A stretch of 64,000 nucleotides of DNA from Leptogorgia sarmentosa (GCA_964658305.1 OZ210885.1:11284001-11348000); one strand, 5' to 3'. Positions 2,335 through 30,776 are shown, numbered from the stretch's first letter. The notes: a model not told the origin generated them from the letters alone. Translations and numbers: made by a program.

Positions 2335-2419
2335 CATTTCTATCGTTCAGGTTGCTGGTTTTTGATGTTGTTTTCGGGACTACCCTTACTGCCGACATAT
2401 ATACTACATAGGCACCCAC

Positions 2420-6370: not shown

Positions 6371-6789
6371 CTATCTATAATCGATCATTATGGGACATTT
6401 TTCATAATAAACATATAGTCCATACACAAGATTGATAACTGTAACTGCAGAAGAATACAAAATTTGCCAGGATTCTACATTTCACAGCCAATCTTGGCAA
6501 TTTTACCAAACTTGTAAGATGTTCTTTCAAATAATATCGTGGTAACAAATTAATTAACGTATAGCTAGTTGATAATAAATTAGTGCAGATAGTATAATAT
6601 ATATAGGTCCAAATTGGAATCGCCTAATTACAGTTCGGTGTTTGTAAATAATCAAGTGTATTAAAGTATGTAATATGTAATATGTAAGATACTGACTGAG
6701 TTCGGAAATAAATATATCATCAAAACAAATTGCAACAGAAAATTTATTAATTTTGATCAATTTGCAACTTCGTCGCATTTTCCAACGTA

Positions 6790-7110
6790 CTATCGACGTC
6801 GAAAAGTCAACGTTGAATCGACGTCGAAACGTCAACGTTGAATCGACGTCGAAAGTCTAACGTCGATTCGATTTGCGTTTTCGACCTGTTTTTCGACGTC
6901 GTATCGACGTCGAAAAGTCAACGTTGAATCGACGTCGAAAGTTCAACGTTGAATCGACGTCGAAAAGTTAACGTTGAATCGACGTCGAAACGTCAACGTT
7001 GAATCGACGTCGAAAGTCTAACGTCGATTCGATTTGCGTTTTCGACCTGTTTTTCGACGTCGTTTCGACGTCAGGTAGTAACGTCGATTCGACGTTGAAT
7101 CGACGTCGGT
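6790..7110. repeat. Right subterminal array, about 21-bp unit cgacgtcgaaaagtcaacgttgaat-like
   Basis: Repeated aacgttgaatcgacgtcgaaa, inverted relative to the motif in the left array. Confidence 0.9.
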
Positions 7111-7699
7111 GTGCTTACTGGGTACTAGGGGCCCAACCTGGCCGGGGGCCCTGGGAAGAGGTTTCTTCAGGGCCGTGGCTAATGTGAAATTCAAACAATT
7201 TTTATTGAAACTGAAGATGCAAAAAAAGTTCGAAGTTAACAAAATGTTTGATATCATTCAGTAGCTAGCTGAAACAATTTTGTTGCCTTTTAAATTGTGC
7301 TTGGATGTTGACAGTATATTAATTGTTGTATATTACAGTCAAACTTTTACTGTTGTCATTGTTTCTGCTTTATAGGAACTTATTTTAGTGTGCTTCTTTT
7401 TACGGAACGTTTTTGTCTTTTGGGTATAATTGAAGCAGAAGAGATGTTAAATAGCTATAATATGTTCGATAAGAAATAGCAGAATTAAAATGCATATCAT
7501 ATGCAGAATTCAGAAGAATATTTCGTAAAGTTAGCATAGTAAAAATGTGAAGCGAAGAGGTATAACTAAGAGGCAATCCACAACAGTTCAACCGAGGGCC
7601 GACACTGGAGATTTACGCCGATGAACTGATTTGCAACGTAAAACAAACATTTTGTGAATGTACTTTCAAGTATTTTTATTTGAAGAAAAAATAATTATT

Positions 7700-7860
7700 T
7701 CAATTTAATAAAAGTATTCCAATATTCAATTTGGTACCGGCGGGGTAACATTTGCGGAGTTGTTTGACAAACATAGTATGAAAAGGATTTAATTTTTTCT
7801 CCAATGGCATCGTTGCTAACGTTTCTTCAGAACCGTTAAATCCGTACACGTCAGCAAAAT
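7700..7860 (-). CDS. Candidate terminal exon of the STAND gene
   Basis: AG at 7862-7861, then a phase-1 open frame (D)FADVYGFNGSEE...ILLLN*, with AATAAA at 7680-7675 just after the stop. The polypyrimidine tract is weak. Confidence 0.45.
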
Positions 7861-10800
7861 CTTATTTCTTATCGAAACTCGGGCACTTTAATACTAACTT
7901 TTAAGCAGAGCGGAAGTCGAGAAAACGTTTATGCAAATTTTCGTTTACCTATTCTGAACAACATTTTGATATCCTTGTTTGATTTGTGTTTAAGATGCTT
8001 ACCATCGTCTGTTCCAATAAACACTCGCTGATCATCTGCACTGAAACCCAGAGCATTAACTGCACTCTCCACTTGGAACACAACAAGCTGTTCATAATTA
8101 TCCATTCTCCAAAGGATTGTACTTCGGTCCCACGACCCTGAGGCTAGTATTGTCCCACTTTGTGAAACAGCCAAACACCTAACATCGTCAGAATGTCCCA
8201 GTAGTTGTTGAACTTCTCTACCTGTTTATAAAATAAGATAGCACGTATATAAAAGGGTGTAATAGGTAATTTTCACTCACATCGTTACTACATTGGCAGT
8301 ATTTTTCAAAACATTGCGGCGATAAAATAAATGATTGAGACAAGTAACTACATTAACTAACCCATCAGCTACACTCTGTTTACAGCGCTAACTTCCATTT
8401 ATACTATTACGTCCCTATAGCAACTTAAACAGCAATGTAAGCGATAGACAAACACCGAAACGATCTTCATTACTAAAAACAAAATAACTGTAATTTTGCG
8501 GAATTTACTGTAGCGTGTTTTACAGGCGTGTGTTTTCATTTGATTACTTCTTGGGATTTCATAAAAGTATGCCCTCATCTTTGTTGTGCAAGTCCATAGA
8601 TATAGGTATCGAGCCAACTTGAACGCTTGGGTAAGACTCGCTACCGGTCCCTTTTGCCTCGATAACTAAAGTGGTAGAGTAACGGTCAATGCCGAACAGT
8701 TTACTGAAACTTATAATATATTTACTGGTGTTTAAAATTTAGTGGTTGATGTTGATGGTAGAAGAGAAAGTAGATAATTGGAAAGCATGCATGAAGCTAT
8801 AAACAGGAAATATTCTATACAGTGAATGCCAATGATTGCACATGAATGTTGTCCTACTTGTATTTGTAATTACTGAACTTTCACATTTTAAAATTGGCAG
8901 ATATCATTTATGCATACGATTTCTTAATAATTGTATGTTTTATTGTTTAGAAGAAATAATATGTCTCTCTGTCCGAATTGATTTTTATACTTTTATTAAT
9001 ATGTTGCAGACAAAAGCATTCCCTCCAGCCATTTGTGAGATTTTTTAATTTTTTACCCAGTAAACATTGATCCCGTTCAAGAAATGACTGAATTAATTTT
9101 TATCCCAGCGTAAATCTGGATACATGTCTCTTCAAGCATCTAATCCAAATTTCAAATGTCATCATATGACGACGACTACCGTACATGATTGGCTAATTTT
9201 CTATTGAATTATCAATTACTGTGAGTGTAAACTTTTGTTCCCTCACCCATATGAACTGCATTTTAACTATATTCTCATTTCAATGAATAACCAAGATTAA
9301 AGCTTTTGTTTATTAGCTAACTTGAAAAAGGCAAGTATGAATATATTTAAAATATAGTCATAATACATACGCTATAATTCAATTTATGTGCTTCCAAAAC
9401 TGAAACTTTTCTCAAAATCCGTGGCAGTAGGTTACAGGTTTAAAAAACTTGGATAATTATCCGTGTAACGAAATGAGATTTGGATGGCGTAATATTATTA
9501 ATACTTACAACGCGTTCCAAACTATTTTCAACAATTCCAAACTATTTTTTTCCCCGCAAAATTATTAAAAAAATGTAAAAAGTGCGAAGATTTGTTTCCC
9601 CAAATCAAAATACCATTTATTTTGCAGAAACTCTCCAAAAAAAAGCTTTTTTATTTAAATTAGACACCATTTAATAACAAAACTGCATATTTGAAAGTAT
9701 TTATCAAAATCGTGAGTTTGTCAAGATAAATAAGGTGGCTGAATTTCAGACACCCAAACTGTTTCGATTCTGTCAAAATCGTATATAAATACTGATCAAA
9801 GATAAATTAGGTGGCTGAATTTCAGACACCTAAACTGCTTCGAGTCTGCCAAAATCGAATATAAATACTGATCAAAGATAATTTAGGTGGCTGAATTTCA
9901 GACACCTAAACTGCTTCGAGTCTGCCAAATTCGTACATAAATACTGATCAAAGATAAATTAGGTGGCTGAATTTCAGACACCTAAACTGCTTCGAGTCTG
10001 CCAAAATCGAATATAAATACTGATCAAAGATAAATTAGGTGGCTGAATTTCAGACACCCAAACTGCTTCGAGTCTGTCAAAATCCTCTATAAATATACTG
10101 ACCAGAGATAAATAAGGTGGCTCGATCAAAACATAGAATTCGAAAGTTTTTTCGCTATGTCATAATATTCACGACGTTAGTATGTAATTACACGATAAAA
10201 GTTGACATCTGAACAATTTATTGAATTTAACTCATTATAGATGTAAGTATAATTTGCTATATACATTCAGCAGTTACAATAACTGGAGCAATAGGCTAGA
10301 TATAATTCGTATGCGAGAAATATGGCAGTGAATCAATGCAGTAACAATACGAGTTGCTTCAGTTATATCGTTTTTAGTTTTTCGAACAACAGCAAGGGAC
10401 GAAGGGCCTTCGCTCGAAACGTTGAATGTTTTTGTGTCGATCGCTTAGGTACAATTTAGGTATTGAGTAAAACCGTTGCTGTTGGTGGACTTTTCCAATC
10501 TTTTACATTCTCGGATGCACGCATTTTGTCGTTAAGCTGAATGAAGAAAATTAAAATAAATGCAAATGGATACATGAGTAGATATATTAATTGACATGAA
10601 TTATTACACGTTAGTGTATGCGCCGATATATTCACATTACACTGATTGCCGGCATAACAAAATATCCGACTCCAACACAAGTACAAGCCACATGTCTATT
10701 GTAAAAGTTTATACCAAAGGAATTCTCAATTCAATATGGGCAAGGTTTACTTATGGATATCTTACCCGCGTCCCCATCGGCGTTGCGACAGCCATCCTGT

Positions 10801-13800
10801 AACAGTGTGACGGGCAAAGTTGCTCTGTTTCTCATATTAGCTCACATAGGATTGAATAACCCAGTTGTCACACAAAATATGATCATTACGAACACTGAAA
10901 ATATTTCCGTAAAGCATTATTTTAGAGCGTTTATGCCCAATTCTATATAAACTCGCTATGCATTGAGTACGTATATTCATATATTTGACAAGCCGGTCTG
11001 TAGGGAAACCCGATATCCAAACTGTCTAAACATTATTTTTGCGCCAATTGGAACGCTATACGCGGCTCGTTTCTCGTCGCACATTGGTCCGTTTCATGTT
11101 TATAGTGGTTTTGAAATATAAATTCGCCGCGGTGGTCTGACTGTTCTCTACAGTTTGCGCGGATCGCCTTGTCTGTAAACGTTGATCGACTTGCTCATAA
11201 CAACGTTACGGTTGGCTTTTCTACATGTTTACTCATTCGTTGTTAACAAAAAGTATTTCATACGACCTTCCGTAAATCAGATTTATCCTTTAAGTGGTGG
11301 GATGGATGATTGCAAGATTCGTCGGAGTTCATATTCTGCGCCGAGAAGGTATATGTCGCAATTACCTGTTTATAATTATATGAGTATTTAATCTATATAG
11401 TGCCCATCTGCTTGGTTAAGGACATGCATGCAGGGTAGTTGAGCGTTATAAAATTTGTCATATTCATTTTGGCTGGCGTTAATATTTGCGCGCTGAAATA
11501 ATATAGCGTTAAGTCAGTTATCCAAGCCCAGCAATAGCGCGGGTTAAATCTAATGAAGCGAACCCTAGGCCCACGGTACAAATTTGAGATTAACAACGCG
11601 AATTCGGCTGGATCTCCGTCTGCTTGGACATTGAATATTTAGCTAGGTTTCTTTCCATGCAAGCACTGGAAGAAATTTGCAGCAAATTTTAAAATTGTTC
11701 TTTCTTCCAATTTCAGCTCCAACCCATACCGGTGGTAATCCATACATTACGAGAAGCACGTCCGACTCGTAACAGAAGTTACGTCGAAGCTTGCAGTAAC
11801 AAGAGTTAGATTTTAGGACAGCCAGAAAGAAATATGATATTCACGTTATAATACACATTGTCCTAGAGAATTTCTGTATTTGAACTTCTGCATCACATTT
11901 ATTAATGAAAAAATTAGTGTTTGAAATTCGTACTCTCTTGTTGTAATCATTCCGTTAGAATTATTTGGTGTATGAAATTCAGCCACCTGATTTGTCATCA
12001 TTCTGCCATTTTGTTAAAATTATTCCACTTCGTAAAATTTTGGGTGTCTGAAATTCAGCCACCTGATTTGTCATCATTCTGCCATTTTGTTAAAATTATT
12101 CCACTTCCTAAAATTTTGGGTGTCTGAAATTCAGCCACCTGATTTGTAATCATTCTGCCATTTTGTTAAAATTATTTCACTTCGAAAAATTTTGGGTGTC
12201 TGAAATTCAGCCACCTGATTTGTAATCATTCTGCCATTTTGTTAAAATTATTCCACTTCCTAAAATTTTGGGTGTCTGAAATTCAGCCACCTGATTTGTA
12301 ATCATTCTGCCATTTTGTTAAAATTATTTCACTTCGAAAAATTTTGGGTGTCTGAAATTCAGCCACCTGATTTGTAATTATTCCGCCATTTTGCTAAATT
12401 TATTCCACTTCGAATACGTTTTGGCGTTTAAAACTCAGCCAGCAGAAAGTCAACTCAAAAGTTAGCAAAAGATAGTATTTTTATGGACAAAATTGAACCT
12501 TTCCCCTGAAATCTCAAATATCAATTGATTTCAAGCTTGTAATATATGAAGTCTGCAAGAAATGTGCTAAACAACTACTAAAAGGAGCAGTAAGCTTTGC
12601 TGTCTCCAGAATTGACGTAAATTATTTTTCAAAATTTGCTCCAAAAATGAATTATATTTTAAGTTTAGTGGAAAATAATACTGATTTAGTCTATTTAGTT
12701 AAATTTTGCAGAAAAATCAGTAAAATTCTGCAAAATTAATCAAAATTTGTGTCGATTTGATAGTTTGGAATTGTTGAAAATAGTTTGGAACGCGTTTTAC
12801 TTATTTGCGCGAAATATGACGTGTGTATACAGGGGTTTATTTTACACTGCATAATAGTTTTTTTTAAATTTTATCAAACTGTAACTATCACCAGACTTTT
12901 CTGTCTTTCCTAATAGAAAGACAACTGCATTGTCGATAAGTTAAAAAATGGTTTCACATTAATTTGTAGCAGAGGATTGGGGATTTTATGATCTACGACG
13001 TGACCAACTCGACGACGACGAGCTTTCGAAGAAATTTTAATGCTGAACAAAAACCAAGCATACACCGTGGTGTCTACGGCTTTTTTGTATCTGCGCACGC
13101 AGTGACGCAGATATATTGCTATCGGGTCCGTGTGTCTGTGTGTCTGTGTGTGTGTTTGTGTGTAAGTGGAAATGTTAAACACTAGGGCAAAGCAAGTTCT
13201 TGCGGGCTAAATATTACAAAATGGCGACTGATATAGGCGCGAGCTAAAGAGTGGTGATGTGTTTGATCGTGGATTTTATTTCGCATGAATAGCCAGATAA
13301 AAAGAAAATGTGAAGGCCGCAGCGACGAGTATTTTGACAGAAATAGAGGTTAATTTATAAGCGTTTACGCCGTTTGGAACACTATTTACTAAGGATATTT
13401 ATACACAAAAATATTATGACGCAAATTATACATTGGCATTGCTTTTAAAGATATATTAAAGAGGTCTGCTATAGAATTTTGATCATCAAAGAAAAAATAT
13501 CATGACGCAAATTATACATTGTATTATCTTGAACACAGCGAATATTTAAGATTATGAAATTTCATGTCTTGACAAAATTGCGCGTATATTTTCCCAACGA
13601 TTCTTCAGCGTGTCGTACATGTTTGGAATGCCCGCGGACCCGCGGTGTCATTGTGAATTTGTGATCACGGAATATCTACTATATGTTGACGCTTCGTCAT
13701 ACAGAATGGTTGAAACATTCAATCCCAGGAAAACAGATTTTGTATCTTGTAATAAAACTAGTTTGTGCGTTTATTAAGCCCGAGACAATAACATGAAAAG

Positions 13801-16800
13801 CGATATCATATGTCGTCAAGTTTCAATTCCTTATGCAATTTGATACATAGGCGCAGATACATGTACACTTTGTGTACCTATTTTTTTTATCAACGCAACG
13901 TAAAGCTATAAGCATTATAACCTCTTCAAAGCAACGTGAAGGCTGATTACAACGTGAGAGCTGTAACTTCAAGTTGACTACGCAGCAACGATCGCATTGC
14001 TTTAGCTGAATCTGTGTAACTGTTTCTTGAAAAAATTCCAACATCTATTTAAAGCATAAAAAGGTCAGCACTCATTTTCAAGCTGAAATTTAGACCCCGT
14101 TGTCGAGTTTGTAGCGTTGTAGATCTTAAGGTCCCTACTATCAATTATTGGACGACGTCGCAAAGAATACCGCGATTTATCGTTGGCGAGCGGATCAATT
14201 ATTGGCCGATTTCGAAAAGCGAAGCAGGCAAGTAATCTGAGAACAACCGATGATATATAACTGAAGCAAAGCATAGCCACACTACGTAGAGTGATGCGAA
14301 GCATATTGGGAAGAGCCCTGAGGCCATTGGGTTCCAGTGAGCTCCCTGAAATTATAGCGCCGTAAATCTCCGATGTAATCAAGATAGGTCTACTGCACCA
14401 AGCCAAACCTGTACTTTATTAAAATCTTTCTATCTATTTAGTTCATTATCAGCGCTAAAAACAAGAATTAAAGCTGAAGGCTCGCAAAAAGTTATTTGAA
14501 AAGGATCATTTGCACATCAAAGTTTTGTTAATTAAAATGTTACTGCAACGATTTTTTCGACCTCATTTTTTTGCGTTAAATATATACTCAGGTCGAAAGA
14601 CGAAATTTGGTGTATAAATGACTTTTGTACGTTGACAGGAAGTAGCTAAATTTCGCCTCCAAACTTCGATATCGGATGCGAACAGAACAGCCGCCATCTT
14701 GTCACCTTGTGACGTCACAAGTGTAACACGTTTAGCGAAGCTACTAGTAAATTCTAATACGTTAGAGCTATACTCTGTGTTTCTCTTGCTTTTTTGGCCG
14801 GAAAAAAAATTCTTTTGAAACAAAACTTGAACATAGGCATTTTAAGACAATATATTTTGCTCATGTCGAGTAACGAGTCTGGCGGGGACCCGCAATCGTG
14901 CGAAAGTTCCAGTGAAACTGACCCAGTGTCGGATGGCTCAGTTAACTCGGGTCAGTTGGGCGGCTCGTTAGTTCATGTCACATCGCACTGCTTTGCTTAC
15001 GACGCCGAACCTATATAGCAGAACCTGGGGAAACGAGTTGTGTTCCAGAAGATCAAGATGGATTGTTGCCAGCAACTATTGAACAAAGAAGCGACGGTAG
15101 AATAACTCTGGAACAGTGGTAAGAAGATTCAAGACTTTGAAGCCTAATTAAAATAGCCGACGTATGCTAAATTTAAATTTATATTTCATTGCTTTTATTT
15201 AATATTCATATGTAGTGATATATTGTTAATTTTGATATCAATATCAATATATTGATAACAGTATAATTATTGTTTCCACATTACCGTTTCCACATTCTCA
15301 TTTTCAATTATTAGATTTGTAAATACTTAAGCTGTGGCAGAATAAATTCATTCGATTTGATATGGAAAATTCATAGGAAGTTCATTTACCTTGTCTGTAT
15401 GCTTAGTATTACAGTAGTTAGGGTTATGAAATTTCATCTGCGTTTGCTTATACGGTATAAACATTCATGTAAATCGTTGCGTTTAAGGTATTTTATTTTG
15501 TTTTTCAAACCAGCGCAGGAAGTGCACGAACTACGAGTTGTAGAAGTTGTTGTTGTCACATCGGGCATGTCGTCACTGGGCAAGTCAAAGGGTGTATCAT
15601 CGTCAATATCGTGACTTGTCATTGCTATCTCTTCAACTTTTGCTGGAGAAGACACCAATTTCACTGGCGACAATCTTTCACTGCCACGAATTACCTAAAA
15701 ATATACGAATAATTTAAATATAAAGTGCTTCGCATATTAGTAAAATTTACCATGTGCATGGGCGAAGAATGCGCCTTTGCACGCATGATATAATTAATAC
15801 TCGTGTTATTTACCTGTAATCGTTTTCGCTCTGTGATTTGCTGTTCGGCTGGTGGTATAATTCCAGCTACATCAATCGTAGGAACTGCATCTTCTTTCAA
15901 TCTCCTTTTAATATTTAGCGATTTTGCTAATTCTAGATTCATATCATAGCTACGGATCTTCGGAGTGGGCGGCTCAAAAATACTAAGAGGTCGCCGTTGC
16001 GTGAAAACCCTGTCTATGTTTCCGGACAAATTTCACCCACTTATTCCGTCTCTGAGCATCTGTTTCTTCATTAGGGAATAGATGCATAGATATTCCTTCA
16101 GTTTTGCTATCATTGACGCAGCTAACTAAGTTAGGACCGCCAGCAACGCAGAGTTTTCCTCCGCGAGTAGCTTTACGTCTATTAGAAATATACGCCATGT
16201 TGAAAATGTGTTACACTTGTGACGTCACACGGCATTAATATGGTGGTCGAAAAGTTCGCACGGAAGTAGCCAAAAATCGCAACTTCGAAAGGCCATAAAA
16301 TCCGTTTGAAAAGAGCAATTTTAATTCTGTTTGCGGTAAACATATTCGGAGAGTAAATACTTTAAAAAATGCCAATAAAAAGTGGGTCGAAAAATTCGTT
16401 GCAGTAACACAGTTTAATAACCAACCAAAATAGTGTGACTATGTATCAAATTTAAAAAGCTCTTAACTTGGCGAAGCGAGTGAGAAGTTATTGATTTATA
16501 TACATTGTTTGGGTACTTATAATAATGTAGAAAAAACAAAAAAATGTTTAAATTTAAATTTTGAAAATGGAGGGATATGTGTCTTTTCCAACAAAAAATG
16601 CCTTGCATTTGAGAAGACGAAAACTTTGTCGAGTTGTGTATTGCTGTTAAAAATTTCAAGAACACTGGTTGAGTTTAAGCCCTCTAAAAGGTCGCACAAA
16701 CTTAATTGCGTTTTTTAGAATAATTAACTTTTCGCATGCTTAATTTAGGCTTGCATAGCATACCTGTCTCTTGGTCTAAGACGCTGATTGAACCGTTGTA

Positions 16801-19800
16801 TAAACCACAAATGGCTAGAGTACAGCCTGCAACATTGGTCGTGGCTAATGAGGATATGGCCGTATCTAACGTCTTTCGCGAAATCTCAGAGCCTCCGAGA
16901 TCCAGACACGAAGATTCCGGTAAAAGATAGCAGGTCTTCGTGCATGTTTCACGGAGTTGCTCTGATATCTTCTGTATCCACGGATACTCTTGATACGATA
17001 GCAGTCTACCTGGAAAATAAATATACACAACAGTCTTATGATATATCCTCGCAAAATCATAAAATTAGGCCTACATATTATCGTTCTTGCCTTTGCAACT
17101 TATTTTTAACATCGATAACTTTTTGATAGAAAAAAGTAAAACTTATAAAACTAGTCGCCCTTCCTAATTTACATTATATAATAAAATTACGATATTATTT
17201 CTTTGAAGAGCTTTGATTGGTTAAGAGCTGTGTATGAAATGGTTATATCCGTTCGCCAAAAAACGTATATGGCATTTGGACGTAATTTTCTCGTATATTG
17301 AAAACTCACATACGACATTATTTTCATTTTAAATCTCGTCTATAATGGGAAATGTCTATTATATTATTGAATTCGGCTCTCGTAGGACATGCGGAGTTAT
17401 CAGCTCTTTGCGTCTGCAGATAACACAAATCTCTGCTTCAATAATTGAACATTAATAGTAGACGAATTTTCAAAACCTTTCATTTGTAAACGTCGTCGCG
17501 ATTTAGTGATTTTCACAAAATGGGGCCATAGGAAATTTCAGTTTAAGAATTGAGTAGATCTCGTGCGAATATCAGAGTTGGCTTTTAAAAAATTCCTAAT
17601 GTAAGACATACATAAATGGTGTCAGCCCGTTTATTATCTTATAAGCCATCGAGGAATCTCAAACCGTCGAGTCGCTCTTCTCTGCAATCCATAATACCCT
17701 TTGAAGTATATTTCTACCGCACGATTGTTTCACGGAACTCAATTACATCATTACTGGTTCTATTATCGCACAACATGAAACATCGGTCAGGCTTCGTTAA
17801 TAGTTTATGGTTCTAGAAAGCCAGGTTAAGGTGAAGTAAAGTGCCAGACTTGGGCAGATGTTTTCCTTTACCCGAAGATGAGTACAGTATGGAATTCCCA
17901 TGATTACGCCGGGTTTGTTTTTTTATATTCAGTCTGTAACCAAATAATACAGGTTCTGGTTGCGCGTGACGCAATGTAAGACAAGACAAGGCAAGGGAAG
18001 GTAAGACAACACAAGAAGTGTGCATGCACGTTAGGGAAAATTACGGGGCAAGAAAGGCCAAGAAAGAACATTCCATAGCAAGCTGAGGCATACAATCCTG
18101 GACAAAAGTTGTTGTAAATCCAACTCTTTCCTCCAGAATTCAATGTTGCCACGTGAAATCGCAACAAAACATTGCAGGGCTTTAGCAAACACGACGCGAA
18201 GTCAGCGGGGACGTGAAAATGGCGCGGCATGAGAGATTTTTTACTTCCGGTTTAGTCCTGGACGTCGCACATGTTCCGTTGTCCGTTGAGGACGGCATCT
18301 GGGCTGTTTTTACCTCCTCTCCAGAACGTCACATATGAATGCTTTATTTCAAACATATTTTCCTTGCTATTTCTGAATTTTATTTTGATTGACAAGCTTA
18401 CGTCTAAATAACTCAACGGGTTTCAGCTGCGTTAATTCTTAGCAAACATTTTAATCGCCATAATAAAATGACACAAATTGTATACGTCGTTAAAAGGTTC
18501 AATGTTACTCGTTTTTTACCAAACGCCACATTTTAGAATACAAAAGTTGGATGAAAACAACCTGACGTTAAAATGAACAAGTAAAAATAGAAATAAGATC
18601 AATTTGAACCACTTGAACAGAAGAAAACGGATTTCATTTTATTTGCCTTAAAAAACTGTCTATTGATACATGTTCAAACACACGACGAAGAAAAAATGGC
18701 AACATTGAAATCACTTTTAAATATCGTTAAATTGCATCCAGTTGGACCTAAATATGGATATTGATATCGAACAGTTTTACTGAACGGAAAATGAAGTATT
18801 TAACTTGCAAAAATTACTTGCAGCTTTGCGATTTCAAAATCGCGAAAAGACCGATAAAACTGTCTTTTCCAAAGAAACTCATTAAGTGTTACTCAAAAAT
18901 CTTCTTGCTCGCTTTTTGCCTACTTTATGACAAATTTAAAAAGACATAAACTACGCTTGATCCCAACCCAGATCCCAAACCCGAAAAAGAAAAGTCGGGA
19001 AAATATTGGGACAGAGTTTTAACTTGAAGTCACTATAGCACGAATAAGCGTCGAACCGGGGCCTGAACTACAAAACTGCGACAGACACATCGCGCGCCTA
19101 TCCGCCTGAGCAAATTTCGAGCTCGCTGAAATTCTTCGAAAACAAAACTATTTATAGTGGAAATGCATTATGTAGCATTCAAATGTGAGCAGAGAAGGTA
19201 TCGACCGTTTTGGAAGCCAACGACCGTTTACGAAAAGGAAATAAGCAGCGGGCGTAATACAACATTGATTTTGGGGGGAGGGGATTTACAACGTTTTTGG
19301 TCAAGATTGAATCTTGGAGAAACGTCGTTGTGACACCAACGCCCCCCCCCCCCCCCGAATTCAATGTTGCCACGTGAAATCTCCCACCTTGATTTTGGGG
19401 CTGTTACAAAACTTTTCCCACAAAAATTTTCCCACGACTGTGGCATAATGATAATGCAAAGGTAAACTAAACTATAGGAAAACTGGATAAAATAAAGTTC
19501 ATTATTTTATTACCTAGCAGTTGTGGACAGATTGAATCAGCATTCTTCTCGATAACGGGGAAAGATAACATTAATGATGATTTGAGAAGTTGGGTTTCCT
19601 GTGACAATGTGCCCAAAAAACGAAAATCTGATACAACGGAGGGTAGGTCAACGTGTTTGACTTTTTGTTGAAGCCAGTTTAAATCGAAGAACAGTTGAAG
19701 TAGCTCGCCATGTTGTTCTGAGGAGGAGATGTGATAAGGTAGGAACTTGAAGTAATAGTCTTTTTGCGCGGTAGTTGAATTACTATTCCATTCACCGTTC

Positions 19801-22800
19801 ACGCATTGGCCACGAAGTGTCTCCACAAACAAACGCTGAACACCAGTTAGGGAGCCCGTGACCTTAAGTTTTCTCCGGGCAAAATCCAGCAGTAAATCAT
19901 GCACACGGTAGCTTGTCTTCTCTTGAAGTTGAGGTCCTGAAAAAAAAGATTATTGGGACGTCAAGCATCAATCAGTTACTGACATTGGTGCATTGACAAG
20001 CGATATCCAACGGACAGTAGGTTTTCGTTTTTCTAAAACTGACTAATAAATAGTAATACAAACATAAAAACTGTTTTGCAACTTTACTTCTGACTTAAAG
20101 GACAGTTATTCAATGCACGACTTGCGGTTTGGAGTAATTTTAATGCGAGGATTTACTAAAACATGGCTTTCACATAACTTCCTTAATTTAAAACTCGCTC
20201 GTGTACCTTTTTGAATCATGGATTTTCTTTCAAGAGCATCAAGTATGCGTCTTGTTTTCCTAGGTTCACACGATGTTCTACCGGCTCCTTCTGCGGACCA
20301 AAACAGCTCCAGTACATCTGAAGGTATGTTTGTATCTTCTGGAAATATACCAAAATCTAGGAACTTTTCTTGTTCCGATTGTTCTAAGCGTTCAAAGCTA
20401 ATATTAATGGCTGTAACGATGTTATCATAAGGATAATTGTCGGTGGCAACCATTGAATGAAGTTCTTCCAAATCAGTAGTAAATCCATCTAAAATATCTT
20501 GCCAAGCCTGCTCCGACCGATTGCCGTTTAAATTTGAGCCAACAAGTGAGAGGGCCAGCGGCAGGCCTTTGCACTGTTTCAATAGTTCTTCAATAATTTG
20601 CTGCATTTTTGGACTAAAGCCAGGCAGTTCATCTTGCTTAATCCAAGCACTTTGAAAAAAGAGCTCTCGAGATTTATCCTGTTCCATTATATCGAGTTCG
20701 TAGACAAAACCTCTTGAACCTCGGACAACATTGACATCCCTGGTAGTTATCAATAACTGACATTTTTCAGACAAGGTATCAAACACAGCAACGTCGTTAA
20801 CATTCCAAACATCATCAAGAACTACAAGACATTCTTTATCGCTCTGCAATAGATAGAAAAATATTAGATGTAAGATACTGCATGGTCTTTTTGCTGAGTG
20901 TCTTCACACTAGACAGCCTGGAAATGACTTCACCGCAGTGCGACTATACCTTTCAGCTTATTAAAACTTTAGAGAGTGTTTTTAAGGAATGCGCCACGTA
21001 CATTATTAACCACTATGCAAATCCGATTAAAGATATATTAAATAGTACTTTTAATTCAAGGGTTACACAGCGGAGCCAAGAACCTCGAACAGCCAAGCGA
21101 AACAAGGATTGAATACAGGGCGTGTCAAAAAGAGTTTAGTGTAGGAAATATTCCCTAAACTAACGTGCGTTAACGAAATCTGTGAAAACGTTGAGTTAAC
21201 CTATGCAGATTAACACCCTCTGGTACATCTCGCACTGAGTTTATTAAATCTTTTTTCTATCATTTTTAGAGTAGGAAATGTGCTGCTGAAGGGCATTTTA
21301 AAACTGACTTGCGCACAGAAACTAAGCTCTTTTCACGAATTTTGATTCAATCGACTCGAATATGGAGCATGTTGTACAAGTTATTAAAGTTTTGTGGAAT
21401 TTGGTGCCCGCAGTGTTGTCACTGCGAGAACTGGATTATGCGCTGCTTCCTGCGTGATTACCGATTGACTTAATGCATAATTGGATATTCATTAATTTTC
21501 AATGCAAATTCCAAGCTAATTCCCAAAGGTCTTAATTGCCGGAAGAAATTGCAGGAAATCCACTTTTCGGACATTGCGTGTTCGCCTCAGCGTGCACCAA
21601 ACCCATGGATGACCGAGCGGCCTCCAAGACAAGTAACAGGTAAAGTAATACCATATTATTTGAATAATTATATGCATGTACCTTTTATAATAATCTAAAT
21701 AATATGCTAATGATTTAACCTTAAGCCCGTTTTGCGCTCCATTATTTCGCCAAAGCCGGCGAACAAAATTGACAAGGATATGATGTTTTATATTCAAATA
21801 CGTGAGTGGAAAACGGGCTTTACGCGAGCTTGTCCGGGAAGAATAAAAATAAGGCTTGTTTGAAATTGCCTTTGAACCCAAAAAATTCGAATGCATACAT
21901 ACTGTGTTCTTTTTAATCCAGTCTTGTGCTTCACGGATAACACTGAAAGGTTTTGCTCCACCAAGAACTTTTATTAAGGTGTTAATCAGTGCTAAACAGT
22001 CAGGAGTTTCCCCAACATCAAGCCATATCACTTGACGTGAAACTGAAACTTCCCATGCGACAGCCAGAGCTAAGATGGTCTTACCCAGACCCCCCATACC
22101 ACGGATACCAACGACGTCACCGCTGCGACTTCCCACCACACCAACTTTACTATTTCCCTCCGTAAGTAACTTCAATATCTCGTTCACTTCTGATGGTCTT
22201 CTCACCATGTCACGAGGTAGACTGCGTAAACCATACCAATCTGAGATAGGAAATAAACGAGTTATGCTGGATGAGTGCAACTGAACCTAAAAAAATTATA
22301 GTAAATGCATGGAGATTATTCATTCAAAAGATATCTCTTCACAAGTTTTTAAACAGTTCAACATGACTTGATATACACATGCACGAAACGAACATCAGAA
22401 CTACAAAAACAAAAAGTTGTCCTGTCATCTATTTTGGTCAAATATATCTTTCATGGCGAGTATTACAAGAAGTGTCAAACTTTGTTTTTTTTTATGACTC
22501 ATTCGAACACCTCAAGACCATTTGACGCTTCATATAAACAAGCCCCAACAGAAAGCCTTATTTTAGCCGACAACTTATGGACTTGGTCACGCTAACCTAT
22601 GCCATTGCATTGTATATGGTAACAATGCGTTGCGTGTTAATTTCTCGCTTAATGTATGTTGATTTGCTAATTTTCGGGGCGTATCGAAATTTTACATATT
22701 CTTTGTGGTTCCAAAGCCACTGTTCGAATCTTGAAATGATTTTGTTAAGACTGGGTGGGGAGCAGAACTTTTGCTCTTTGTTGATGTTGTTTTCTGCTAC

Positions 22801-25800
22801 CGACACTGGCCACAAAATGAAACATGTTGTTATGAATTTTAATACATTTATTGTCACAAAGCATCCCAGAGATGGACGAGAAATATGAACTGCACAGTCC
22901 GCAGTTCTTGCCCACAGAAAGTAGTCATTCAATATAGAACAAAAAGCTTGTGCTACGAAGCTTGGATGGATGGAAATTGCGGAAAACATAAGTGTACACT
23001 AGAACACAACGCATAGTACAATTACGCTCTCTCTGTTCCATCAGTTCTCATAATTTGTATATTTGAACTATGAAATCGAGTCACATGACAATAAAAATAA
23101 ACGAATTCGGTATTTTGACATAAATGGAAACTTAAATATCTGACAAAGGAGAAACTGGACGTTCGAATCCAGAATTGGAACCAAAATTTTTAACGAATTG
23201 ACAGATCCTGTTACTCAGAAAGTTAATATTGCTGCATAACATGTTTTGCATAAATACAGTTTCACTAGTTTCTAGTCATCAAAACCATACTTTGTTTCTC
23301 TGCATAGTCTGAATGCTCCGTCCAGATCTTTTTATGAAGAGATTCGATTTCATCCGTGTTCCGTTCAATTTTCTCCGCCTGACGTTTAAGCTCCTTTGAA
23401 TTATGTTGAAGTTTTTCTGAGTTATCAGCTGCACATCTTGCAACCTCTTCAATTTTGCAAAACAGTCTTGACTTTAAATTGTCAAGTTCTTCCACCACTT
23501 CATCCATCTGGGAAGAGAAAAGTGACATGTCACATATATAAGTGATATATCTTTACAACAAGTATACAGAGATTTCGGTAAGTAAGTAAGCATTAGTATG
23601 TAAGCATGCATTTTTAAGTGCCGTACGGTATGTGAACAAGAGTATATGAATATGCCCCCTCCCAATTATCGCTATTGCTACGCCACTGGCATTTTTAGAG
23701 TTTTTTTCCTCTGTTGTCAACTACCCTTTTTTTCTGCTTCAAGATCTGTCAAAAACTATGAGCATATACCTCACAGTGAGGACGACATATTGAATGCTTG
23801 GTTGCTAAAGAAGTAAAGTCGAATACCAGGTAGAATTAGGTATTGTAATTTAAATGCTGCGAGCAGAACTGGAATCCCAATTGGCTGCATCTTTCGCAGT
23901 CGTCTCTTGGTTAGTTGAGTGGTAGTCATGTCATCAATCGCACTAAACTGTCGACGCGCTTACGGTTTTCAGGCGTAATCGATCAAAAGTAAACAGCTGC
24001 GTGGTTTCTATGCGTATTCGGTCAAAACTAAAACGCTTTCTGGGCGTTATTGATAAGAACTAAAGGGCAGTGGAGCTTTCTAGACGAAATTCTGTCAACT
24101 GCGGAGGTATAGGTAAAACAAAACGACTGCTTGGATATGCATTGATGGAGGTCGATATTGGGCTTTCTAGTGTCGTGAATTTAAAATTGTTTACCAATGG
24201 TGTGTACGTAGCCATACTCCATTCCCTTCGGAAAATGCGCCAGTACAGTTGACGGAAACCGCAACTTCTCCTCGAGGACAAACGCTTGGCAAGCGTCTTC
24301 TTTCACATTTAAAGTACAATTCCAGCTATTTAGAATTTTGTATATTTTAGCTGCTAAGTACATTTCAAGACGAAATACAATATATTTTTAAGAGTAAGCA
24401 TTCGATTCGTGGTCTCCTGCGGTGTTTAATGGTGCCTGAGTTAAGGATCACTTAAAAACACTTAAAGCTATTTTGAGCGTGTTATCACTAAACATCCAGG
24501 TGATCTCGATACACGGAAAAGGACTGAGACTAGCTGTCGGATAGAAATCCATTTTTCGATTGAAACAACTGAATATCTCCCATAAAATATTTTATTCCGA
24601 TTCCATATTTTTGTCAGAGCTATAGTTGTCATAACCAAACATAATTACAAAATTTCAACTAGTTTCATAAAGAATAACGAAAGATATCATTGCGTGAAAT
24701 ATAGCAAAGTGGATTTCTATTCGGACAACCCTTTCTGGGCGCTGATTGGTTGAAACACGAACACGAGATCACCTGGATTGTTATACGTAATTAGGTGCGT
24801 TTTAAATCGGCTGAAAAACAATCCACCTCTTTATCACGCAATAACGAGCACCGTGCATACAATCAATTACAACTCCTAAACACCTCCGGCAAAAAAACAA
24901 CCTTTACGAGAGAACCTGTGGGAATAGCTTCATGATTTTTGATGCCGGAGGGATACAAGTTCCCGAAAAGGGGCCAACTTTCCTGTAACACCCGCGGGAA
25001 AAGCAAAATATCGTCTGCTTGTTGAACGGGTCCATATAATACTAATTTAGCGATTGTTCGGGGGAATATTAGATTTTTCTCAAACCTTTTTGTCTGCTTC
25101 AAACTGCCAGGTTTCACCACTTCGGCGAAGTTCGTCAAGTAATTTTAAGTAACGACCATCAACAAAAACGTCCGAGACTAAGAACGAAAAAGTATATTAT
25201 TAAATCAAGCAAATAATACAATAGCACAGGTAACGTATTTGCAGTTATAAGGAATTCCCAGAGTTAGTACTGTTTGGTATGAGAAATTTCCGGTATGGGT
25301 ATTCGGGGAAATTATACTGATATTATCGGTAAACCAATTTCTAACGAGTGACATCAGCTAAGGGCTTAAAAACCTTTAAGTCTAACGCTGTAATCGCATG
25401 ATGAGAATATTTACCAATTCCAAGCATGTAAAATGTTGTGTTCAAGCATAGCCTTAAAAACCGGACTTAATTACAACAACCATTTAACTGATAAATTTCA
25501 GCCTATAACTACACTCGCACATAGTAGCAACAATACAGAACTATCACAGTTTATTGAAGAATTTCGGTATATATAAAACTTCGATATATGGGTATAACGA
25601 AAAAACCTATACAGATATACCGATATATTAGTTTTCATACCGATATTTCGGGATATCGGTATACCGAACAGTCCTTCCCAGTACAACATTCCCTCGAACA
25701 AGACATTCAAGGTGTCGTATTTAAGCACTTTTGACGACAGAAAAAAGTTGTTCAGTAAGCTTTCTAGTTTCCTTCATGCAGTTCAAATTTCATATTACAT

Positions 25801-28800
25801 TTTGTTTTTAATAAATCAAAGCACGCACAGTAAATTTTGGGGGGTAAAAATTACTCTGAAGCTGGGTAAATTTTACCCTTTCTACTGTAGTAAATTAATT
25901 TAGGGTAAAAATTACTCTAATACTTAGGGTAAAATTCAACTGTCATCGTGATCTCACCCCCTTCAAAGGTGTAGTTGTGAAATCATCACTAACTACCCCT
26001 GCTAGGGTAAACGATGGGGTAAAATTTACCCCAATTTACAGGGTGAAGGTACCTAGGTAGAGTTACCCCATACGGGTTGGGTAACATGAAAACTTTCAAA
26101 ATGGCGGATTTCAAGGAGTTACACTACGAGTGATCTTTTATATTATAAACATGAAAGTCAAATCAACATGGAAAGACAAAATTAAATACCAATTTTGCTA
26201 AGGCTTGATGTATTATTGAATCTGAGAAAAGGTAGGTTAACAATTCTACATTAAATAGACAAAATATTACAGGTGTATTACGGAGAATGGCAGTTATATA
26301 AACTAATAATTAAATTTACACAAACAAGTAAAGTTTCCAGCTTTGTACTGTGAAACGACCACTTTGGCATTAATTATTGTAGAATACAATTACACTAACA
26401 ATATCCTTGTACAAAAAACAAATAGTGAAACAAAATCTTAATTGATACAGCCTTATTTATATAATCACAATAAGCCTTAAAAACCAATATATAACTATTT
26501 CGGAATGTTCATGCTCCAATTTTCTGTACTAGATTGATTTATATTTCATGGTGGGAAAAAGAAGGCTTTAGGTTGTTGAATTGCACAATTTTGTATAAAA
26601 TTTGACAAAACACAAGGACATGAGTGCCGTGGTATGATTAGAAGTTATTATCCAGAATCAAATTTTGTGTAACTAGGTAACATGCAAATTTAAGTGATTA
26701 TAAGTTCTTTAATTTTGCAACACATATTACATCTTGAACTTATCCTTATAATTGTTGTAGAATGTTAAGAAGAAGAATGAAGAATGTTAATGTATTTTTG
26801 AACATTGTATTTATGTAACCAAAAACTACCAGAACTTTACATATGACTTAGCCATGGAGGCAGAGTCTCCTATCAACCTGCACTCAACTAATTATGTGTA
26901 ATTATAATAATCACTTGAAAAACGTTAGATGTACACAATGAGGACTGCTAGACAGTAATCATGCACTGACATTCACCTTTGTCTGCTGGTAATATGCTGT
27001 TCATTCAAGTGGTAATGAAAGCAGGAATGCCACCAGAAAATTTTAACCAAAAGTTCCAATATTGCAAGAACTTTATATACATCTCTCAGGAACTACTGGT
27101 ATTAACTGCTAATCCTCCTAATATACTGCAAACACAACACCTCCCTGAAGTGTGGGAGACTTTAAAGGCTGAGTGGATCCCTCTCCCCTAAAGAAGAATT
27201 CTGAAAGTATGTGAATGATAATAGCTGGGTGTGAATGATAACACTGTACCATTATTATTTTAGACAATAAAAGCAAAAGTTCTAGAACACTAGCACACTA
27301 GTAGAACTTTGGTTGCCTATTGTTGTCATCTACTGAATACACTTGTTACACATTTAGGATTACCAACATAGCTATCATCACATTTAGGTCCGTTTTAGGG
27401 GTTTTAGTGCATTTCAGCAAATTCCGGATTCCGGCAAATTCCGAATTCCGTAATTCGGTTTTTTCAAACCTACCTATCCAAAGGCTATAAAGGTTGCAGG
27501 ATTTAAATTAATAATTTCATCTTTATAATGTTTGTAATAATTTTCTATGCACATGTATAGATACGTCATGAATTTAGCCGAATTTTCGAAGACAATGACT
27601 CAACTAAAGATATGAAAGATAAGTTGTCATCTTACCAACGTGCAATAGTAAAATACAGCGAAAATCTTCAACGAAAGAACTCCTTTTTGAAAAATGCCTT
27701 ACAAGACCTTCAAGAGGCAATTGCCCAGGACCCAGGAAAGACTCAAGGTATAGACTTAGCTAAGTTAATATATATATATATATATATATATATAGCTACT
27801 TTAGTTTATATTAAACAATTATTCAATGAGATCGAGTAAGATAAATTATATGGGGAATTATTAAGGCAGAGGTTTGTGTTATTTGCCGAAGCCGAAGGCT
27901 GAGGCAAATACAAACCGAAGCCTTAATAATTCAGCATATCCTACGAGAACCGAATTCAATAATTGTTTTATTATTTATTTGTATCTTAATCAGACTTAGG
28001 GTAAACGCATCGTACATATGAACATTTCTTTGAGAAAGCCATTTGTATTTTTGAGCTTTTGGCATAAGCAACATAAATTAGTCGACGTCATAATGTCATA
28101 TAATTTTCAATATACGACATAACTACGTCATAATGTCGTACATGAGGATTTAATGCACTGCTCTTAACCAATCAAAACTCTTGAATTATTTGAAATAAAT
28201 AATAAATCTGATTATGATTAGCAAATTGCTGAAGTATAAACGCAACGGATTCGAGAAATTGCATTCATTTCAAATAACAGAAACGTTATACTGAATAAAG
28301 CAACAAAGCCTGTTGTTTTTATACCACTGTTATCCCCGATATATATAACAGTATGTTCATAAGACTGAATTATTTTTTCTTTTACAGCATATGAAAATAC
28401 GTTTGCGTTGATGGTGCTTCCTAAATTACTAGAGAAAAAAGCTGGAAAACAAGATAATGAATTGATCAAATTATTATCGGTCAGTATAATACCCTTTACC
28501 TTCGATATAGACGGCCTGTTCACACCGCGGTACTGTTTATTTTTGTACGCCACCAACCTCACAATCTATAGCTATACCATTTTAATCAACACTTGCATGC
28601 GTAATACTGGTAGCCTATACCTATTTACGTACTAAGATAATGAACACATATAGGTTCGTAAAATTAACGTATATTATTGTATTCCCTGTACTATTTATAG
28701 GAAGATGATGATTTTGAGGACGAAATAAGGAAGACAAAATCCCCTACCATCATAGGTATAGCAGAAAATGTAATGAAAGTTGATCGTTTGGCCCTTGCCA

Positions 28801-30776
28801 TTGAAGGGCAAACACTTTTGAACGGAACAGGTTTTCCGTTCGAAAGCGTTTTTTTCGCATTACATCAATGCTTCTACGTATTCAACTTGGAATACCCTAG
28901 GGAGTACAAAAATCTTTTCGGTTTCCTCGACAACGTGCTTCTCGGGTTGAGTACCTCAGGTCGAGTTGGGTGCTCATCCATAGCCAATTGTATAACATTA
29001 CAAAAATTTGTGCAAAAGCTGAATGATTTAACAAATATAGATTAAGTTAAGCTTTATACACACCGTTCCGTCGATGAAAGTACGTTTTAAACTTGTAACT
29101 TACAGCAGGCACGTTAACCTGCATGCATGCTATTGAAATAAGTTATTGCATGTAACTATGTGTATATATCATGTAAATGAAAATAATTGTGTGTAAATAC
29201 CTAAATTTATATATTTTTTATCTATATTTTGTTAATGTATTTATAGAAGTAAATACCTAATTTATATATTTTTATCTATATTTTGGTAATGTATTTATAA
29301 ATAAACTACGCGTTAGCATTTATCTTATTCGTTTTGTTATTGGAAAAAAATCCAATCAAGTAATTTCACCCCTAAATGTGGTGAAAAATGTTTCACCCCA
29401 AATTGGGGTAGCTTGTGAATAAACCTCTGTATATGGGGTAATTTTTACCCCACTTGCGAATTGCCCACCAGGGGTAATTTTTACCCCCATAAGATTTTCC
29501 CTCAAAAAACGGGGCGTTCTGTGGACATTCAGTTGCCCTCGTTTTTCGGGGTAATTTTTACCCCTAAAAATTTACTGTGCGGCTCTAGGAATATGAATTG
29601 ATACAGCACTATACCATGCATGGACTGTGTATACTGATAATACTACAGTCATATTGAAACAGTTGTTATGTAAGTCCATGTACATGTAGGCAGTAATGTA
29701 TTCGCATTTAATCACGAATTTTTGTCAAAAAATTCCCCTTGAGCAAGATATCGATTGATAGTGGATAGATAACAGAAGCCTATCTTAGGCCCGTTTTAGA
29801 CGTCGAATTTCCGTCGCGTCGAATGCAATTCAAACAATAGTTAATGAGCTGTGTTTTCTCATTATCTATTGTTTGAATTGCATTCGATGCGACGGAAATT
29901 CGACGTCTAAAACGGGCCTTAGGGCCAGAAAAATATTATACATGAATGCAATATATCTTTCGATGGATTATAATTATAGAATTATAACACAAGGATTTTT
30001 TATGGACAAACTGCAATGGTTTTTTATCAGCCTCACGCTACAGCCGCGTTTAACACAAATTATCGGACTTCAAAAACAAGTTATTGAAATTTGGTGTAGT
30101 ACGTGATATCTACTCCAAAATTCTGAAGCTCCCCGCCAAAACGTCAAACCAAAATTCATAAGCAATTTAAACAGATACCTTTTTTCTTCCATTCCAGTAG
30201 ATCATCACACGCCTGTTTTTCAAGATCAGGTGATAACTTAATGTTTTTCATCAAGAATTCCATGTCTTGAATTGCATCATTGAACATGGCATTGGTCCAA
30301 TTGGAAAAATTACAATGAGCCCACTCATTTCTCACTTTTGACCTTACATTCTTTGCGTACACTGAGGCACCAGATGTTATGAATGGATCTGCTTCACACA
30401 TGATAGTCAGTAAAGCAGAAAGATCCATTGTATCGTCAAAACCTGTAAACTTTGCCATGAAGGGTTGAACGAACAACTTTGCCAAAGACAGAGCATCTTT
30501 CACCGCGTAGTCATATGCACGGGGAGATTTGTGTACATTATTACCGTTGATGTTTTTATATTGTAAGTAAAAGGTTGATGGCGGAAATGTTCTCTTATAC
30601 TTTCCAGAAGTTTGTTTATCAATTTCAACAGGTGGTTTACATAAGTCTTGATACCAGCTCCGCAATTCTGCATCGACAACTTTCCTCAAAGTGGTAGTTA
30701 CAACTTTGGTAAGGCAAATACCCGTTACAACCCATCTGGATTCTTCATCTGTTGTGTAACTGGCACCGCTTGCCAT
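7700..30776 (-). CDS. HEPN-like / coiled coil / NB-ARC (APAF-1-type STAND) / helical domain / WD40 protein, whole gene model
   Basis: Exons 30776-30179, 23804-23770, 23507-23291, 22240-21903, 20843-20207, 19936-19514, 17009-16764, 8221-8003 and candidate last exon 7860-7700. All junctions are GT-AG with matching phases and no internal stop; 957 aa if the last exon is real. Confidence 0.85.
8003..8221 (-). CDS. WD40 exon
   Basis: (G)REVQQLLGHSDDVRCLAVSQSGTILASGSWDRSTILWRM...AVNALGFSADDQRVFIGTDD; 219 nt, phase 1-1, donor gtaagc. Confidence 0.9.
9720..10125. repeat. 76-bp tandem array, about 5 copies (left subterminal)
   Basis: atcaaagataa recurs at 9795, 9871, 9947 and 10023; core ggtggctgaatttcagacacc. 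Confidence 0.95.
11965..12440. repeat. 76-bp tandem array, about 6 copies (right subterminal)
   Basis: gggtgtctgaaattcagccacc recurs at 12042, 12118 and 12194; the core is the inverse of the left-array core. Confidence 0.95.
13081..13888 (+). mobile_element. Helentron-associated interspersed element (HINE/DINE-1-like)
   Basis: T-run, subterminal IR GTATCTGCGC (13087), short hairpin, (GTCT/GTGT)n tract, 3' IR GCGCAGATAC (13851), hairpin GTACAC-ttt-GTGTAC, T-run. Confidence 0.75.
14863..15018 (+). pseudogene. Possible N-terminus of the Kolobok second (KolX-like) gene
   Basis: MSSNESGGDPQSCESSSETD...FAYDAEPI*. Serine/acidic start ending in a YxxEP-like motif, convergent with the THAP ORF. Confidence 0.35.
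15434..16198 (-). pseudogene. THAP-domain transposase N-terminus, disrupted
   Basis: CVAGGPNLVSC...SMHLFP...RRNKWVKFVRKHR, then a stop/frameshift removing the CxxHF segment, then RLKEDAVPTI. Intron at about 15812-15695; no DDE domain remains. Confidence 0.8.
16764..17009 (-). CDS. STAND gene exon: linker and first WD40 blade
   Basis: (G)RLLSYQEYPWIQK...LLPESSCLDLGGS...AICGLYNGSISVLDQET; 246 nt, phase 1-1. Confidence 0.85.
19047..19113 (-). mobile_element. tRNA-derived SINE-like head (degenerate)
   Basis: Minus strand carries A-box-like gctcaggcgg and B-box-like ggttcgacgc, but no full cloverleaf. Confidence 0.35.
19514..19936 (-). CDS. STAND gene exon: MHD-like motif and APAF-1-like helical domain
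   Basis: (G)PQLQEKTSYRVHDLLLDF...YYFKFLPYHI...LFFDLNWLQQKV...VVSDF; 423 nt, phase 1-1. Confidence 0.9.
20207..20843 (-). CDS. STAND gene exon: NB-ARC Walker B to winged helix
   Basis: CLVVLDDVW (Walker B), LLITTRD (RNBS-B/sensor I), CKGLPLAL (GLPL), FPED; 637 nt, phase 0-1. Confidence 0.95.
21903..22240 (-). CDS. STAND gene exon: NB-ARC P-loop
   Basis: VVGIRGMGGLGKTILA (Walker A), VIWLDVG; 338 nt, phase 1-0. Confidence 0.95.
23291..23507 (-). CDS. STAND gene exon: coiled-coil linker
   Basis: MDEVVEELDNLKSRL...KELKRQAEKIERNTDEIESLHKK; acceptor cttttctcttcccag, donor gtatgg; phase 0-1. Confidence 0.8.
23770..23804 (-). CDS. 35-nt micro-exon of the STAND gene
   Basis: ttctttag|caaccaag...tgtgag|gtatat converts phase 1 to phase 0 as required; encodes (A)TKHSICRPHCE. 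Confidence 0.6.
24494..24778. mobile_element. MITE with 15-bp TIR
   Basis: atccaggtgatctcg at the left end, cgagatcacctggat at the right end. Confidence 0.55.
25826..29579. mobile_element. Non-autonomous EnSpm/CACTA-like element in coding intron 1 of the STAND gene
   Basis: TIR cacagtaaatttt...ggggtaaaaattac and its inverse ending ctgtg; 2-bp TSD CG; repeated ggggtaa/ttacccc subterminal motifs. Confidence 0.85.
27561..29045 (+). pseudogene. Three in-phase exons (27561-27747, 28388-28479, 28701-29045) of an EnSpm accessory (SAMD3-C-like) gene, 5' part missing
   Basis: GT-AG junctions, open spliced frame, C-terminal CFYVFNLEYP..LFGFLD..LLGL motif typical of these transposon accessory proteins (recall). 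Confidence 0.65.
29788..29918. mobile_element. Palindromic PIF/Harbinger (Tourist-like) MITE, 131 bp
   Basis: Nearly whole-length hairpin ggcccgttttagacgtcg...cgacgtctaaaacgggcc; TTA on both sides. Confidence 0.85.
30179..30776 (-). CDS. First coding exon of the STAND gene: HEPN-like domain (DZIP3/hRUL138-like)
   Basis: Helical domain with DLSALLTIM and the Rx4H motif RNEWAH; acceptor ttgtag before 30787; donor AAAG|gtatct, phase 1. Confidence 0.8.

Follow-up and report, generated by a model that had tools for sequence, protein, structure and literature searches.

In a 64,000-nucleotide stretch of the Leptogorgia sarmentosa genome (GCA_964658305.1, OZ210885.1:11284001-11348000; the whole stretch is called the window below), we found a minus-strand gene whose eight coding exons run from 30776 down to 8003 and join into a frame of 923 codons with 0 stops (Table 1). 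The encoded protein is predicted to be an APAF-1-like STAND ATPase with an N-terminal HEPN RNase domain and, judging from its sequence, is probably a ligand-gated RNase.

Gene structure and splicing

The exon model was built by reading the minus strand and by aligning the two best full-length relatives, P0001 and P0012, to which the joined protein is 58% and 63% identical, respectively. All seven introns are of the GT-AG type and in phase (phases 1, 0, 1, 0, 1, 1, and 1), and exon 2 is required because the frame without it reaches a stop at codon 202. The nearest named relatives come from Dendronephthya gigantea and Paramuricea clavata, with more distant ones in a stony coral and in bivalves. 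A sequence-only reading of this DNA had proposed eight exons spliced in phase into one open frame, which this model bears out, together with a set of motifs, all of which are present in the joined frame (RNEWAH at residue 149, GMGGLGKT at 350, LVVLDDVW at 421, ITTRD at 447, GLPLAL at 508, and VHD at 639). The domain order that it gave, a HEPN and a coiled coil ahead of NB-ARC, the APAF-1 helical domain, and WD40, is supported, and the NB-ARC, APAF1_C, and WD40 matches are all above the Pfam cut-off. The candidate ninth exon of that reading, whose intended coordinates are uncertain, found no homology support near 7700-7900.

Table 1. Positions in the window of the coding exons and of other elements; scores are E values
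Feature	Position	Strand	Description
Exon 1	30776-30179	-	Whole predicted HEPN domain (residues 1-199), RNEWAH at 149-154, conserved D118; 66% identity to P0001
Exon 2	25177-25086	-	92 bp, start of linker; tblastn to P0001 residues 201-238, 8.5e-6
Exon 3	23507-23291	-	Predicted coiled-coil linker (residues 231-302); matches the P0001 and P0012 linkers
Exon 4	22240-21903	-	Start of NB-ARC, Walker A GMGGLGKT; Pfam NB-ARC 1.2e-5
Exon 5	20843-20207	-	Walker B LVVLDDVW, sensor TTR, GLPLAL, winged helix; Pfam NB-ARC 3.3e-22
Exon 6	19936-19514	-	VHD (MHD-type) motif and APAF-1 helical domain; Pfam APAF1_C 1.9e-11
Exon 7	17009-16764	-	Linker into first WD40 blade; tblastn to P0001 and P0012, 6e-19 and 3e-20
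Exon 8	8221-8003	-	WD40 blades, last exon found; Pfam WD40 1.7e-13; phase-1 GT donor at its end
Split Ig exons	2814-2420	-	Another gene; Pfam I-set 4.8e-5
Calcium-binding EGF exon	about 100-1	-	Another gene; Pfam 5.9e-6
Broken THAP-domain frames	15440-16210	-	In intron 7; THAP 2.8e-4
Inverted arms	14677-14733 and 16204-16260		57 bases each
zf-RVT-like frame	31144-31563	+	Just upstream of first coding exon; 7e-4
Opposite-strand transcript	25826-29579	+	In intron 1-2
Its coding-looking pieces	27595-27747, 28386-28479	+	
Its coding-looking piece	28701-29042	+	No Pfam match
Fragmented frames	51635-53927	+	Pfam without clear match
Tandem arrays	3945-4828, 6792-7032, 9723-10122, 11959-12412		Repeat units of 61, 25, and 76 bases

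Splicing was followed in contigs from three runs of one study (X4 to X6; no run is recorded as RNA), which skip the introns, most of which are almost uncovered. The bar for a joint was set at 31 letters on its short side. The exon 4-5 joint (20843/21903) had 184 letters on that side and was found in all three runs; the exon 2-3 joint (23507/25086) was seen in three runs, with 67 letters in the one run above the bar; and the exon 5-6 (19935/20206) and exon 6-7 (17008/19513) joints, with 62 and 45 letters, were each above it in one run. These joints have CT..AC ends. The exon 3-4 joint (22236/23295) was found in one contig with a side of 29, and because eight of its junction letters differ yet length and frame are kept, this contig is an allele or near paralogue. 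For exon 1-2, two runs carried 15-letter overhangs at 25179, of which 14 letters equal the end of exon 1; no other site in the window matched at one mismatch or fewer, and two did at two mismatches. For exon 7-8, an 18-letter overhang at 16761 equals the start of exon 8 (18/18). Five junctions are thus seen as joints, and two (exon 1-2 and exon 7-8) as short overhangs only.

A relative's contig (L003) is intron-free over 4084 bases and encodes P0012 in one frame, with blocks that match exons 1, 4, 5, 6, 7, and 8 in order and the same domain order in that single frame. The possibility that exon 30776-30179 is not spliced to the NB-ARC exons, on which the sequence-only reading would have failed, is therefore countered by the intron-skipping contigs together with L003, although only short overhangs speak for the exon 1-2 junction in this organism itself. 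We conclude that the gene is real and expressed-looking and that its architecture is well supported. The allele-like differences listed for the exons comprise 17 synonymous and 17 non-synonymous changes, three of them sharing one codon (36 further rows lie beyond those listed). Directly ahead of the ATG, at 30789, is an acceptor-like site, and run X6 has a loose end without a match in the window; together they suggest a 5' noncoding exon elsewhere.

The WD40 part, a double beta-propeller when complete, is represented by about two blades. Residues 914-1709 of P0001 (about 790 residues of WD40 repeats) had no match in 1-8002 or in the rest of the window, so that the blades named in the sequence-only reading are there but most of the sensor is not. 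The gene copy may thus extend past the window, or it may be truncated. In the latter case, it would be a 3'-truncated duplicate that is either decaying or, lacking a full sensor, joins full-length paralogues in their assembly as a helper or decoy. No further WD40 exon was found in 1-8002 or elsewhere in the window, read-through of exon 8 reaches a stop just after 7932, and farther along this strand come the Ig and EGF exons of a different gene, all of which fit a truncated copy. However, the 923 stop-free codons, the intact motifs, the spliced contigs through exon 8, and the good GT donor that exon 8 retains speak against truncation; intron 7 is 8.5 kb long, which makes a further exon at a distance of over 8 kb plausible, and the first Ig exon, in which an in-frame stop was read by eye, may be a dead fragment inside an intron. 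We consider truncation unlikely.

The N-terminal domain

We took as a HEPN domain a four-helix up-down bundle with an R-x4-6-H motif at the end of helix 3, an upstream acidic residue (often in E-x3-[KR]) being optional. RNEWAH (149-154) is the only R-x4-6-H in the 923 residues and has a polar residue after the R. Its R, N, and H are jointly kept in 246 of the 257 relatives that span the motif, and D118 is kept in 258 of 268; E-x3-R is absent, with T27 at that place. AlphaFold2, run with 91 aligned rows, returned a helical bundle with a predicted local distance difference test (pLDDT) score of 96, with helices at 10-45, 119-128, 137-153, and 162-177, plus 183-198, and a large insert (46-118) after the first long helix. 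D118 lies at the start of helix 119-128, R149 inside helix 137-153, and H154 just past it; judged from secondary structure, the motif stands at the end of helix 3. The HEPN claim of the sequence-only reading depended on such a model, and the confident model obtained here places the motif as the definition asks.

The same reading had pointed to HEPN_DZIP3 as the profile to expect, which turned out otherwise: HEPN_DZIP3 (PF18738) had no match to exon 1 at E up to 1. The only Pfam match of exon 1 was to HEPN_Swt1 (E 0.015; 16 bits, below the cut-off of 27.5). Among the 91 aligned members, 39 match HEPN_Swt1 and 25 match DUF4559 at E up to 0.1. P0095, which matches exon 1 at E 6e-26, is above the DUF4559 cut-off of 27 with a score of 31.4 over residues 14-203, and P0096 scores 28.8. 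Seven DZIP3 matches occur in the alignment (A2), and the one that was located, in P0013, is a separate second domain at 263-407. Language-model neighbors of the homologue P0003 lie in DUF4559, DZIP3, and Swt1 HEPN clusters, at family shares of 11-39% that make this a lead only. On these profile matches, the domain is assigned to the CXorf38 (DUF4559)/Swt1 HEPN group and not to the DZIP3 type; membership is transitive, since the window protein is below the cut-off and its relatives P0095 and P0096 are above it. Neither exon 1 nor exon 3 had a Pfam match to CARD or another death fold. Exon 3 had weak Pfam matches only, many of them to coiled-coil families, and its coiled coil was called without a dedicated predictor.

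The domain might instead be an unrelated helical bundle with a look-alike motif. The fold search by itself is weak: Foldseek gave no match, a profile search of solved sequences returned coiled-coil noise only, and a single-sequence fold reached a pLDDT of 35. Set against this are the full-length relatives with Pfam HEPN matches above cut-off, the position of the motif on the model, and the language-model neighbors in the same HEPN group, and we regard a non-HEPN bundle as highly improbable. A prediction of a two-copy complex, run without its own alignment, scored 0.01 and is evidence neither way.

Somewhat less improbable, though still doubtful, is a HEPN fold that binds RNA or protein as an adaptor, the role suggested for the HEPN of Swt1, which lacks the motif, in a receptor that signals via partners. 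The nearest solved HEPN is that of Swt1, which is listed as inactive (PMC3710099), the canonical E-x3-R is missing, and the domain occupies the place of an adaptor (DED) in paralogues. The motif is lost in Swt1, however, whereas R, N, and H are kept here in nearly all relatives, and the CXorf38 group is predicted to be active (PMC3710099). For CXorf38, moreover, a preprint suggests that an Asp, D134, upstream of the motif R162-H167 serves as the acidic partner (10.64898/2026.05.28.728550); by spacing, not by alignment, the distance from D118 to R149-H154 is close to this.

Scaffold, domain partners, and neighboring elements

Within the NB-ARC domain, the Walker A, Walker B, sensor 1, GxP, and MHD motifs are intact, and the APAF-1 helical domain and then WD40 repeats follow it (Table 1). 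The best solved match of exon 5 is APAF-1 (E 4.7e-15), and the only solved matches of exon 6 are APAF-1 chains. Exon 5 scores about 100 bits to some bacterial NB-ARC-WD40 proteins versus 59 bits to human APAF-1, and one-to-one orthology with APAF-1 is therefore not established.

P0283, a close NB-ARC paralogue, has two DED stretches, and the Dendronephthya "APAF-1-like" proteins P0285 and P0286 have an N-terminal DED (6e-9 and 3e-6). Two NB-ARC trees were computed, a quick one with 35 rows (P0002 was left out, having no core match) and a careful one with 14 rows; vertebrate APAF-1 is in neither. In the 14-row tree, DED-bearing and HEPN-bearing proteins form one clade (100/99), in which the DED members branch successively below the HEPN members with moderate supports (87-88 / 88-95). 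Since three octocoral APAF-1-like paralogues carry DED domains, the predicted effector has been swapped: as far as domain matches tell, HEPN and DED alternate on one octocoral APAF-1-like scaffold, and the change from one to the other falls between exons 3 and 4. The sequence-only reading had a HEPN effector in place of CARD/Death; replacement of a death fold stands, and the domain replaced in this clade is DED. The DED-to-HEPN direction is the likelier one, and an approximately unbiased test, which did not reject a single DED clade (p 0.174), counts against taking it as proven. In the quick tree, the same HEPN-linker module also sits on a distant NB-ARC-TPR clade, which implies module shuffling.

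Beyond this scaffold, 27 of the 33 long relatives that were scanned have the same HEPN joined to an NTPase/GTPase switch, namely, nSTAND3 in 15 (with ankyrins), NB-ARC in 5 (some with TPR), NACHT in 3 (2 of them with LRR), Roc-COR in 2, and NPHP3_N and AIG1 in 1 each. Given this variety of switches, the N-terminal domain behaves, on predicted architectures, as a mobile effector. None of these 33 relatives has a HEPN Pfam match on the domain at 1e-5, so standard annotation misses it, and the numbers of HEPN receptors given in the literature are probably underestimates because the domain falls below the profile threshold. Six among the 120 listed matches share a longest contig of 738,537; this sharing of one longest contig size by several listed matches suggests clustered gene copies.

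Individual architectures included the HEPN in tandem with a DZIP3 HEPN (P0013), behind Roc-COR (P0053 and P0089), and ahead of either an AIG1/GIMAP GTPase (P0073) or an Ire1/RNase L-like kinase-KEN module (P0157); besides the 27, one of the 33 scanned relatives has a kinase and a KEN domain. On the prokaryotic side, PADLOC assigned the window protein no family, and 33 pattern matches in genome contigs yielded a single locus (L001), which was rejected as chance (a 27-residue match in a 103-residue frame with unrelated housekeeping neighbors). No prokaryotic relative of the HEPN family was thus found by PADLOC and one pattern scan of genome contigs, a search too narrow for distant bacterial kin.

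Several other elements surround the exons. The transcript on the opposite strand in intron 1-2 is spliced and alternatively joined, with GT..AG joints from 26229 to 26759, 27262, 28386, and 28699, and at 27745-28386 and 28478-28700; we take it to resemble transposon-derived SAMD3-like C-termini. The THAP frames and the inverted arms that flank them are likely a decayed DNA transposon, and the zf-RVT-like frame is likely a remnant of a long interspersed nuclear element. The fragmented frames on the plus strand presumably resemble a tyrosine-recombinase (Crypton-like) element. Two 76-base tandem arrays are inverted relatives of each other.

Proposed action and comparison with known systems

APAF-1-type STANDs oligomerize into a ring that clusters their N-terminal domains. 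In HEPN RNases, which are metal-independent, two R-phi-x-x-x-H motifs come together in a single composite active site. The dimer requirement of HEPN is stated in a preprint (10.64898/2026.05.28.728550). On the reading that we favor, a ligand-gated RNase, the WD40 part would hold the protein in an autoinhibited state until a ligand bound there led to nucleotide exchange and opening of the switch. Subunits would then assemble into a ring, above which the linker of about 100 residues would let neighboring HEPN domains pair. The paired domains would cut a host or viral RNA, and the outcome may be translation arrest or cell death, in a role in antiviral defense or cell suicide.

We give about even weight to a broader scenario. 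In octocorals, exon shuffling of a mobile CXorf38-type HEPN cassette would have remade a DED-tipped, caspase-recruiting apoptosome scaffold as a machine that destroys RNA without further partners. The same cassette, which standard Pfam annotation misses, would arm many other immune switches of invertebrates that have stayed hidden (NB-ARC, NACHT, nSTAND3, GIMAP, and Roco), and animals would then have an equivalent of the STAND nucleases of bacterial abortive infection. In corals and bivalves, STAND receptors with a HEPN tip rank with the most expanded immune genes. The present gene lends itself to a test, since the switch of the APAF-1 scaffold is well understood and DED-tipped sister paralogues allow comparison. 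RNase activity, if found, would mean that an animal uses an apoptosome scaffold for a caspase-free cell defense at the RNA level. It would also be the first activity of any kind in the CXorf38 HEPN group, to which an uncharacterized human gene belongs.

In the literature searched, which left most subscription papers outside its coverage, we found neither a HEPN-APAF-1-type fusion nor a functional test of an animal HEPN-STAND. The class of HEPN-STAND-repeat proteins is known, and what appears to be unreported is a CXorf38/Swt1-type HEPN on an APAF-1-type scaffold beside DED-tipped sisters. In cnidarians and cephalochordates, members of the CXorf38 HEPN group are reported to be joined to NACHT, ankyrin, CARD, and Death domains (Anantharaman et al. 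2013, PMC3710099), and HEPN and STAND are among the shuffled effectors of invertebrates (PMC8195603). With CXorf38 (DUF4559)/Swt1-like HEPN, the gene shares the R-N-x3-H motif and has relatives above the DUF4559 cut-off; it differs in that the domain sits on an APAF-1-type NB-ARC-WD40 protein and is itself below the Pfam cut-offs. The Zn-ribbon insert of CXorf38 is not evident here, where the conserved columns contain one conserved Cys (C155).

Across nine cnidarians, the domain most often joined to NACHT is a DZIP3-type HEPN, and D. gigantea has 83 proteins of this kind (PMC8260672); DZIP3-type HEPN is also frequent in stony corals (PMC10236652) and in the pearl oyster (PMC9646362). In the supplement of the stony coral paper (PMC10236652), 19 of the first 30 of 180 WD40 rows are HEPN-NACHT-WD40, which agrees with the caution of the sequence-only reading that the architecture class may not be new; a HEPN-NB-ARC-WD40 row may occur among the others. 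DZIP3-HEPN-NACHT-WD40 and DZIP3-HEPN-NB-ARC-TPR are among the rows of that supplement; its 27 DUF4559 rows include none with WD40 or APAF-1 and one with NB-ARC alone, and 0 of its 7 APAF-1 rows have HEPN. The coral and bivalve HEPN-NACHT and HEPN-NB-ARC receptors share with this gene the N-terminal HEPN, the central STAND NTPase, the C-terminal repeats, and the expanded families but, unlike it, mostly have a DZIP3-type HEPN on NACHT.

With the APAF-1/CED-4 family, the gene shares NB-ARC, winged helix, APAF-1 helical domain, and WD40, whereas the N-terminal CARD of APAF-1 orthologues is absent. Invertebrate paralogues of that family have CARD replaced by paired CARD, Death, DED, or TIR (Zmasek et al. 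2007, PMC2246300); these swapped N-termini are described there as protein-interaction domains, and the one here is a predicted nuclease. Human SAMD9 and SAMD9L are animal STAND-like proteins with a proven N-terminal RNase of their own, which the C-terminal half keeps inactive until a virus infection turns it on (PMC10246899). That nuclease is not a HEPN, differing in structure from the HEPN-type PrrC, and the NTPase and sensor differ as well (PMC10246899). Effectors of bacterial NACHT proteins include HEPN, and bacterial Apaf-1 homologues have a protease instead of CARD (PMC13581612, 10.1101/2022.07.19.500537); the gene shares with these bacterial Avs/NACHT STANDs the logic of effector, STAND, and sensor with a predicted enzymatic N-terminus, here in a spliced animal gene.

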